A stretch of 61,912 nt of DNA, filler included, from Collodictyon triciliatum (GCA_043381765.1; 27 parts of 27 records of this genome joined end to end with filler, not necessarily neighbours in it), one strand, 5' to 3'. Counted from the whole stretch's first letter, positions 39,209-41,268 are shown. The notes: a model not told the origin generated them from the sequence alone. Numbers and translations: made by a program.

Positions 39209-41268
39209 CTTTCAATAAATTATCACTCAAAATCAGTTGTCGCAATGAAGGGAGCTCATAAGCTGGAATAGTCCCTAGTTAATTTAAGACATCAAAATAT
39301 TACTTTGAATACAGTTTGATAATTACAGCATTAATTTAATATTCTGAAATAAATTTATAAGTTACCCGTGAGGTTGTTCATGAAAAAATTTAAAAAATAA
39401 GAGTCGGATATTGGCCAGGCAATACAGGCAAAGTTCCTTAGGAGGGAATAGAAATACATTAGGATTGAATTTGAAACGAAAAAAAATCCTGAAAAAAAAT
39501 TAAGTTTACCGTTAAGCCTATTTATGCATAGCCAAACTTGGCGAATATAAGGAGTTTCGAACTTCGGAATGGTTCCTTTGATTAAAGTTTCAATAAGTAT
39601 AGTGCAAATTCTCATGAAAGGAACGGAGGAAAAAACGGTGAAGTAAAAATAAGATAAGGATTGAATAACTAGATACCAATCAAGTAATTTTGATTGAGAA
39701 ATAATTCTTCAAGGAGCAGAGATACAAAGCTGCTGATTGTACCTATATACAATTTTTTAGCATTATATTTTGATGAGATATATATATATATTTAAATTAC
39801 CGTCGAGTTGATTATCATTTAAATAAAGTTTCTGAAGATAGGGGGCGTCGAAAATTGGAACATGACCTAATCATATTTTCTTTTCATTATTCACTTATGT
39901 TGTGTCGTCTGAGCGTAATTACAAATACCCTCTAGATTGTTTGCAGACAAGAAAAGTCTCATGAGCAATGGTGTATCCAAATTCGGAATTGTTCCTAGGA
40001 ATATTATTGTTTTAAATTGATATCTTATTGTTATTAAACTGTTATAAAACAAGAATCCACATACCACCGAGCTCATTAGCACTTAAATCTAATCTTTGAA
40101 TACTCGGCGATTTGAATTCCGGCATGCTGCCTACAATTTCGAAATGAAACATTCTATCAAAATCAAAAGTATCAAGTTATATTTGAAGGTACATATATAC
40201 ATAATTAAATAATTTTTTGATTATAAACACTTTTATGATACTTGTATTTAATTGGTACCATTAAATAAATTCCATTCTAACATCAAACTACAACAGTTTG
40301 GTATATTCAAGGCTGGTATACCTCCTTCAGCACGTCAGATTTAATCATGAGTAATTCAAAAGTACTCCAAATATGGCTTATGTTTTTTTATTAAAAAAAA
40401 AGTGACTCGATATGTGGATTAATTTTTTTTGATTCATATATGCTCATAAGTACCATGATAGAGTTAAAAAATAATAGTACCTGATATTTGGTTATCAGAT
40501 AGGTCAAAAGTTACAAGAAATGGAAAGTGCAAATCGGGCAAGCTTCCAGACAAATAATTATCATTTAAGAGGAGGGCGGACACCGGACAATTATTATTTT
40601 GAAAGTCATAGTCCGAGCACCCATCCACACAATAGACTCCATACCATAAACACACAGGAACATCAGTTCCCCAACCATCATTTTCATCCCAATCAAAGCC
40701 ATTGGTACTGTTATAAATCTTCATAAGTTCATCACTTTGATTTATTGGGGGATTTGCTGACATTTCTCCCGCATTATCAACCCTGAAGCACCATAAACCC
40801 GGAATATTTATATTAGAAGTAAAAGGAAGCTCTACAACACTGGGATATGCACTAGATGGGACATTTACGTAGTTAAATCCATCACCAGAGTTCAATCCAA
40901 TGATAGGATATCTCGTATCGTAGTAGTAACTTGGGGGCATTGTCCAATTTATTCCATCCTCGGGATATCGAAATATCGTAAAATATGATAACTCGTTTGT
41001 GATAACAGATGCTTGAAAGGTATTGTAAGGGTATGGGGCATCGCAACACGCCCCAACTCGAAACCATGTTAAGAGATATATACGAGAAGCATTGAAAGAC
41101 TCGAATCCTTGAAAATTGTCTCTTATTAAATTGTTGTATTCTTCTGAATAAATACCGTTGACTGGAACTCGCTCGTAGTAAATGCGCCCAGAATTTTCTC
41201 CAACGTTTTTTGTGATATCAATATCGGCCCAAAATGGCGCAATGATTGGGCTGTCAGGTATAGGGAGC
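39209..41268 (-). CDS. NIDO-domain + LRRNT + plant-type LRR surface protein; partial at both ends
   Basis: Exon 41268-40481 reads IIAPFWADID..GRIYY..LLTWFRV..NTFQASVIT..FTIFRYPEDGINW..GLNSGDG..SNINIPGLWCFRVD (NIDO), then VCLWYGVYC (cap). Seven 66-nt single-LRR exons follow (40259-40324, 40065-40130, 39929-39994, 39801-39866, 39677-39742, 39510-39575, 39209-39274), plus one 71-nt exon (39366-39436). Confidence 0.92.

Follow-up and report, generated by a model that had tools for sequence, protein, structure and literature searches.

Which kind of protein is encoded by a protist gene in which a NIDO (nidogen-like) domain is followed by a series of leucine-rich repeats (LRRs), and what could such a protein do? 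NIDO, a domain of unknown molecular function, generally counts as a component of the animal matrix, and the animal proteins that contain it have roles in matrix and mucin layers. The gene that raises the question lies in a stretch of 61,912 bases from Collodictyon triciliatum (GCA_043381765.1), hereafter called the window, which resolves into 28 short contigs of ~2.2 kb each between spacers of the form N...TTAATTAATTAA...N; an earlier reading of the same DNA, made from the sequence alone (the sequence-only reading), had counted 27. The gene occupies contig 18 (39075-41268, minus strand; GC content 0.33), where every long frame and every LRR-like frame is on the minus strand, and it is truncated at both ends of the contig. 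We consider it likely that contig 18 represents the central part of a nuclear gene that is expressed in an AT-rich freshwater protist, and that the product is a large surface protein of a receptor-like or adhesive kind, the outer part of which is encoded here.

NIDO domain, cap and repeats in a single gene

The open frame at 40467-41267 (minus strand, 267 codons) matches the Pfam NIDO profile with an E-value of 4.8e-31 and 108.7 bits, against a gathering cut-off of 25, which makes it a member of the family by score. The sequence-only reading had proposed a near-complete NIDO domain fused to an array of GxIP-type LRRs, and this central claim stands in both parts: the first ~27 positions of the profile fall beyond the contig end, and the single open exon that carries the domain is followed by phase-1 LRR exons whose joins are confirmed by sequences from a public run, X1. 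The window NIDO domain contains an APFWAD motif, and its exon ends in a phase-1 GT donor at 40480. Immediately 3′ of the domain, in the same frame, lies a segment with the motif W..(6)..C.W.GV.C, which aligns with residues 381-443 of P0001, a Diphylleia rotans protein introduced below. This segment had been named an LRRNT cap; the Cys/Trp motif is indeed seen, but the Pfam scan gives no LRRNT_2 match at E<=1 in the 267-aa window protein, and the segment is a putative cap at motif level only.

Support for the repeats of exon 1 from profiles and structures is uneven. LRR_1 and LRR_4 match the exon-1 protein at E = 0.014 and 0.037, under their cut-offs, and the best sequence matches of the window protein in the PDB are plant BIR-type LRR ectodomains (E = 1.3e-4 to 1.6e-3); the same search returned no NIDO structure at E<=0.01. 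A structure model of the exon-1 protein (10-row alignment) has a mean pLDDT (predicted local distance difference test) of 56.2, with the cap/LRR part near 30, and Foldseek found nothing for this model in the PDB at E<=0.001. An ESM Atlas search with the window protein reached a best score of 0.76 and returned no large cluster with the NIDO and LRR combination, which counts as weak evidence.

Downstream of exon 1, the gene continues in eight small exons (Table 1). Seven of them are bounded by AG and GT, have a length of 66 nt, are in phase 1 at both ends and encode one LRR each, with the 22-aa consensus GTIPxFxxPxLxxLxLxxNxLx. All eight had been described as 66-nt exons encoding 22-aa units in the splice register of contig 1; their number, their phase and the common register hold, and one of them (exon 8) departs in size, with 71 nt in the window, 72 nt in the run X1 and a unit of 24 aa. 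Equal length in multiples of three, the same phase and one LRR per exon, which together define a cassette array, are thus found in seven 66-nt exons and one 72-nt exon, the latter in its transcript form. The exons have a GC content of 0.39, and the introns, 58-156 nt long with GC 0.14-0.30, all run from GT to AG. A scan for splice sites combined with an LRR motif on both strands of all 28 contigs served as a chance control and gave 12 matches: seven on the minus strand of contig 18, five on the minus strand of contig 1 and none on the other 54 contig-strands.

The nucleotide identity between pairs of exons is 0.35-0.56, and the LRR exons of contig 18 are therefore old rather than freshly shuffled. 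As to ongoing shuffling, the plus strand of contig 18 has no splice-bounded LRR exons and no near-identical exons were found, in a search that did not extend to decayed relics without splice sites. Pfam scans of single exons matched none of seven exon peptides at E<=10 and are uninformative, because the 21-aa peptides are not long enough for the LRR profiles and do not share their register.

The exon joins can be compared with public sequencing data. Seven runs were listed in a search of public runs, five of them with some words of the stretch, and four of these five were aligned; no run was listed as RNA outright, and X1 is classed as RNA by a guess. In an 836-nt contig from X1, the last part of exon 1 (40559-40480) is followed directly by the eight LRR exons, with joints that include 40480->40323 and 39365->39273. 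The parts that the contig skips (156, 128, 70, 62, 58, 101, 73 and 91 nt) are exactly the eight predicted introns, and they begin and end with CT..AC on the plus strand, that is, GT..AG on the strand of the gene. This contig is ~220 nt longer than the part that matches the window, and the transcript therefore extends beyond exon 9. The NIDO part (40779-41268) is matched with five differences by another X1 contig, 513 nt long. Three freshwater-metagenome runs contributed pieces of 151-204 nt with 99-100% identity, some of which contain intron sequence, so the unspliced form exists as DNA in nature. The spliced X1 contig is most simply read as a transcript; the alternative is a processed DNA copy.

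Exon 8 has no open phase-1 reading in the window, and in a three-frame reading its LRR appears only with a frame shift inside a run of T. If this break were real, contig 18 could hold a pseudogene in decay, one copy of a large family of LRR genes, as its 71-nt exon would suggest. We regard this as very unlikely: the break sits in a homopolymer, and the X1 contig has one extra base behind 39391, which restores an in-frame exon of 72 nt, with no other differences in the seven pieces listed out of its nine. Moreover, all eight introns retain GT..AG and all other exons are open.

Table 1. Features of the NIDO-LRR gene on contig 18 and of the related gene on contig 1 (positions in the window; X1, the public run described in the text)
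Feature	Position	Strand	Remarks
Exon 1	40481..41268	-	open at 5′ contig end; NIDO, cap and first LRRs in one frame
NIDO (nidogen-like) domain, PF06119	40773..41255	-	frame residues 5-165 = profile 28-186 of 186
Cys/Trp-rich putative cap before LRRs	40581..40751	-	residues 173-229; W..C.W.GV.C motif and two more Cys pairs
First one and a half LRRs	40481..40580	-	within exon 1; weak LRR_1/LRR_4 matches
LRR exon 2	40259..40324	-	66 nt, phase 1-1; piece and joints in X1 contig
LRR exon 3	40065..40130	-	66 nt, phase 1-1; in X1 contig
LRR exon 4	39929..39994	-	66 nt, phase 1-1; in X1 contig
LRR exon 5	39801..39866	-	66 nt, phase 1-1; in X1 contig
LRR exon 6	39677..39742	-	66 nt, phase 1-1; GTIS for GTIP; flanking joints in X1 contig
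LRR exon 7	39510..39575	-	66 nt, phase 1-1; in X1 contig
LRR exon 8	39366..39436	-	71 nt in window; 72 nt (24-aa LRR) in X1 contig
LRR exon 9	39209..39274	-	66 nt, phase 1-1; GT donor, then intron running into (AGAGAAAA)n and contig end
Related cap+LRR gene or module	1..2202	-	cap open at contig end, multi-LRR exon, eight 69-nt single-LRR phase-1 exons

Long microsatellites, (GAGAAA)n at 38870-38974 and (AGAGAAAA)n at 39075-39200, lie at the ends of contigs 17 and 18, where the assembly probably broke. The (AGAGAAAA)n repeat of contig 18 sits in the intron after LRR exon 9.

Relatives of the gene and the descent of its NIDO domain

A word-indexed search for longer proteins yielded 16 matches from 879 candidates, and P0001 (1310 aa, 39% identity, 99% query coverage) is the only one of them with both NIDO and LRR families. 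In a HMMER search, 4508 of 1.84 billion cluster representatives matched at E<=0.001, the best 150 of which, together with 14 others from the word-indexed search, make up the 164 proteins compared here. Within this set, 26 proteins match the NIDO part and 141 the cap/LRR part, and three match both: P0001, P0018 and P0023. Because proteins with both parts should outscore those with NIDO only, the best 150 of the 4508 are probably close to a full census of NIDO+LRR proteins. The three are unannotated Trinity open reading frames (ORFs) of 1310-2178 aa from the EukProt transcriptome of Diphylleia rotans (CRuMs), listed as EP00002_P030824/5 (P0001/P0165), EP00002_P021929 (P0018) and EP00002_P000268 (P0023), and Pfam finds in them NIDO (one copy, or three in P0018) and LRR families.

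The spliced window model is collinear with residues 214-680 of P0001 (251 bits, 3e-78), and P0018 and P0023 align in one stretch over exon 1 (query 2-264/265). Like the window gene, the Diphylleia proteins have NIDO, a Cys-rich cap and GxIP-type LRRs in this order, with 39-44% identity over the 267-aa exon. They differ from it in that their repeat units are mostly 23-24 aa long (22 aa in the window) and in that P0018 has three NIDO domains; furthermore, they are known as transcripts and not as gene structures. The architecture is uncommon, at three of 164 proteins. The sequence-only reading had stated that the fusion is not known from characterised proteins, which remains accurate for characterised cases but has to be amended, as the fusion is present in public, uncharacterised Diphylleia ORFs. 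The literature searched, leaving supplements aside, holds no description of NIDO with LRRs or of NIDO in protists.

Animal NIDO proteins (nidogen, alpha-tectorin, mucin-4 and DEX-1-like proteins) have the NIDO domain, with its APFWAD motif, in common with the window gene and differ in its partners, which are AMOP, vWD, EGF or ZP domains in animals and LRRs in the protist. Among the matches, amphibian and ray proteins named tectorin-like, mucin-4-like or DEX-1-like have 29-38% identity to the window. The domain is not confined to animals, as it also occurs in a protein from a Chloroflexota metagenome-assembled genome (MAG) and in unnamed metagenome proteins. To place the window domain, a tree was built from 30 NIDO segments, one per protein with all segments kept for Diphylleia and Chloroflexota, and with segments below 120 aa dropped. 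The window NIDO falls in a clade of seven rows (support 97/98) with the NIDO domains of P0001, P0018 and P0023 and that of P0149, a NIDO+FG-GAP_2 protein, while the other side of the tree holds the animal (amphibian and ray) and Chloroflexota MAG domains. This position points to descent shared between the window NIDO and the Diphylleia domains. Just outside the Diphylleia/window clade branches P0140, a mucin-like, single-pass protein of 463 aa in which NIDO precedes a stalk rich in Ser and Thr, a single membrane helix and an acidic tail.

The same data bear on the idea that misassembly has joined the NIDO and LRR parts into a chimera or that contig 18 stems from a contaminating animal. Several facts would fit such an artefact: animals are the best-known source of NIDO, amphibian proteins come next after Diphylleia in the ranking of NIDO matches, and the assembly is highly fragmented and contains a bacterial-looking contig with 64% GC. 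However, NIDO, cap and LRR stand in one uninterrupted frame of 267 codons, over the full length of which three independent proteins derived from transcripts can be aligned, the window NIDO is nested among Diphylleia domains and not animal ones, and contig 18 matches contig 1 in composition and intron style. We therefore hold this explanation to be extremely improbable.

The gene is a new member of a rare, undescribed and apparently lineage-restricted NIDO-LRR family, seen in one public transcriptome. D. rotans, a member of the Diphyllatea within CRuMs, is the closest relative with sequences in the databases. A kinase ORF on contig 16, described below, agrees with this, and by sequence comparison alone the source would be a relative of Diphylleia, or Diphylleia itself if these paralogues are merely absent from its transcriptome. 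In the available portion of PMC11603278, Diphyllatea are heterotrophic protists isolated from freshwater lakes, a habitat that fits the metagenome pieces of the gene, and CRuMs are placed at the base of Amorphea in the corresponding portion of PMC10492846.

The predicted complete protein and its possible role

What lies beyond the ends of contig 18 can be predicted from the Diphylleia homologues. Their longest isoforms (P0165, 1524 aa; P0169, 1869 aa; P0018/P0166, ~2178 aa) consist of a hydrophobic N-terminal segment, NIDO, the cap, ~25-40 LRRs, a Cys-rich segment with a weak, below-cut-off match to DUF7630, six to eight predicted helices and a short tail. Since the homologues have these parts, a signal peptide would be expected at the start of the complete window protein, then some 25-40 LRRs and, at the end, a stalk rich in Cys with six to eight membrane helices behind it. 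The C-terminal module of Cys-rich segment and six to eight helices occurs in 16 of the proteins compared, and it is present, too, where the ectodomain is FG-GAP+LRR (P0029) or consists of LRRs only; it thus gives the impression of a shared chassis on which the tips can be swapped. Ten pairs of Diphylleia isoforms differ only at their ends or by single-residue indels, and none differs by units of 22-24 aa.

On this basis, the membrane topology, the ligand and the function of the window protein may be outlined as follows. The N-terminal part would be extracellular, and the LRR solenoid would offer a long concave binding face with the NIDO domain at its tip. Ligands outside the cell, for instance the surfaces of prey, microbes or matrix or the own cell coat, may be bound by NIDO and the concave face, and the multi-pass module would serve as the membrane anchor and may transduce the binding. 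Prey or microbial surfaces and the own cell coat are the obvious candidates because the flagellate is phagotrophic. By analogy, the part that NIDO proteins play in the matrix and mucin layers of animals would fit a role in adhesion or assembly, but it defines no mechanism.

The protein could also lack a membrane module altogether. It would then be a secreted or matrix/glycocalyx protein of NIDO and LRRs, acting in cell-coat assembly or adhesion and not as a receptor; the animal NIDO matches (tectorin-like, mucin-4-like and DEX-1-like) are matrix or mucin proteins, the 3′ end is absent from contig 18, and the short Diphylleia isoforms P0001 and P0023 stop before or inside the membrane module. 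We rate this alternative as unlikely, as the short isoforms differ from the long ones only at their ends and each of the three Diphylleia NIDO+LRR families has at least one isoform that reaches the multi-helix module (P0165, P0169 and P0018/P0166).

Several points weigh against a membrane-anchored surface protein of receptor-like or adhesive kind as the product of this gene. Both gene ends are absent from contig 18, so that the signal peptide, the number of LRRs and the C-terminus are not readable in this copy, and exon 8 has the frame break described above, for which an assembly error or a real allele may account. The RNA label of X1 is a guess, and there is a gap between its two contigs at 40560-40778, inside the single open exon 1. 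Identity between the window protein and the Diphylleia proteins is only 35-44%. A Pfam scan of the 420-aa membrane module at E<=10 gave DUF7630 and 7TM_transglut only, both below their cut-offs, a PDB profile search of the module gave nothing significant, and its AlphaFold model from a 4-row alignment is poor (pLDDT 50.6). Finally, the ligand and the function are proposals drawn from sequence comparison.

Attempts to classify the module further gave little. A Foldseek search with the poor model returned nothing at E<=0.001, and the rows with a TMEM16 or G-protein-coupled receptor (GPCR) fold, at E 0.2-1, are not usable. A language-model search led to eukaryotic clusters with Ephrin_rec_like or PF06011 in a minority of their members, which is a lead only. 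A module akin to a TRP-like channel (the fungal-type TRP family PF06011) was considered on this account, as 12-15% of cluster members carry that family, and is not supported, as PF06011 is absent from the matches of the module itself at E<=10. An LRR-GPCR of the LGR type is likewise not supported: neither 7tm_1 nor another GPCR family is found in P0001, P0165, P0169 or P0166 at E<=0.01. A word-based search with the C-terminal region of P0165 returned only its own cluster, and a scan of metagenomes for longer copies of the gene yielded two loci with only distant NIDO relatives (31% and 29% identity), from which the C-terminus was not recovered.

Known LRR systems and other contigs of the window

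The sequence-only reading had called the LRR array plant-type. Like the plant LRR receptors (LRR receptor-like kinases and receptor-like proteins, LRR-RLK/RLP), the window protein has the LxxLxLxxNxLxGxIP signature and a W..C.W.GV.C cap, and BIR2 and BIR3 are its best solved matches. The plant receptors differ in having an LRRNT_2 cap, 24-aa units and a kinase or single-pass anchor, whereas the window has 22-aa units in seven of eight exons (24 aa in one) and its homologues are predicted multi-pass proteins without a kinase. The name reflects the repeat signature and the cap motif; the cap profile and, less clearly, the unit length speak against membership in the plant family, the homologues have no kinase, and 'plant-type' denotes a resemblance only. 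Modules of cap and LRRs like those of the window are also abundant in metagenomic and bacterial proteins.

Genes with one LRR per exon have been described elsewhere. The available portion of PMC3341825 reports 'type I LRR exons' of Ectocarpus, 72 nt long with the consensus GxxPxxLxxxxxLxxLxLxxNxLx, which resemble those of contig 18 in being exons of equal length and the same phase that encode one LRR each and start at the same Gly. For Tetrahymena, the corresponding portion of PMC6564038 gives tens of thousands of 90-bp LRR exons in phase 2. As far as these portions go, the exons differ in length (66 nt in contig 18 and 69 nt in contig 1, versus 72 nt in Ectocarpus and 90 nt in Tetrahymena), and the Ectocarpus and Tetrahymena genes encode mostly cytoplasmic ROCO or LRR-only proteins, unlike the window gene.

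The gene adds one more independent case of the one-LRR-per-exon design. It also widens the range and the partners of NIDO, which is found here in a CRuMs-type protist with a plant-like LRR solenoid and, in the relatives, with an unclassified multi-pass module, and it adds a receptor-like architecture for which no description was found in the literature searched. The finding concerns a domain architecture that was already visible in public transcriptome ORFs, and the surprise is moderate. More speculatively, collodictyonid-like predatory flagellates may have a large, lineage-specific repertoire of recognition receptors in which an ancient, pre-animal NIDO sits atop a solenoid of interchangeable phase-1, one-repeat exons, on an unclassified and possibly channel-like multi-pass module; we see this as a doubtful, though conceivable, extension. 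If true, it would add a third independent way of linking perception by LRRs with the membrane to those of plant LRR-kinases and of animal LRR-GPCRs and Toll-like receptors (TLRs), and the exon cassettes would permit diversification of the repertoire, as proposed for Ectocarpus.

Two genes of the NIDO-LRR kind had been claimed for the window. Contig 1 does contain a related cap+LRR gene, and no NIDO is in view there. The contig begins inside a cap similar to that of contig 18, so that a NIDO further upstream would fall outside it, and its LRR exons are 69 nt long (23 aa) in the same splice register. As internal caps occur in P0023, one of which matches LRRNT_2 at 5.6e-6, contig 1 could be an inner cap+LRR module of a larger gene.

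Other contigs contain genes that touch these subjects more loosely. Contig 3 has an open frame of 539 aa (5186-6802, minus strand) with three Cys-rich Ephrin_rec_like repeats and FG-GAP_2, a domain that also accompanies NIDO in P0055 and P0149 and the LRR chassis in P0029, so that one domain set seems to have been recombined within the lineage. Contig 16 (34486-36680, plus strand) has a protein-kinase frame at 34488-35921 (Pkinase, 3.6e-28), with a Diphylleia rotans ORF as its best database match at 46% identity. The tail of this frame and the next frame of 140 aa (36228-36647) bear LRRs of the LxxLP type without GxIP, and this kinase+LRR gene belongs to a class different from that of contig 18 and probably cytoplasmic. 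Contig 15 (32186-34385) stands out with a GC content of 0.637 against 0.29-0.45 in the other contigs; its frame of 626 aa at 32241-34118 (minus strand) is a MatE transporter (Pfam, 1.4e-55), and the contig looks like bacterial DNA within the assembly. On the plus strand of contig 8 (GC 0.38), a frame of 350 aa at 16267-17316 matches LpxK, the lipid A 4′-kinase (Pfam, 2.5e-16).

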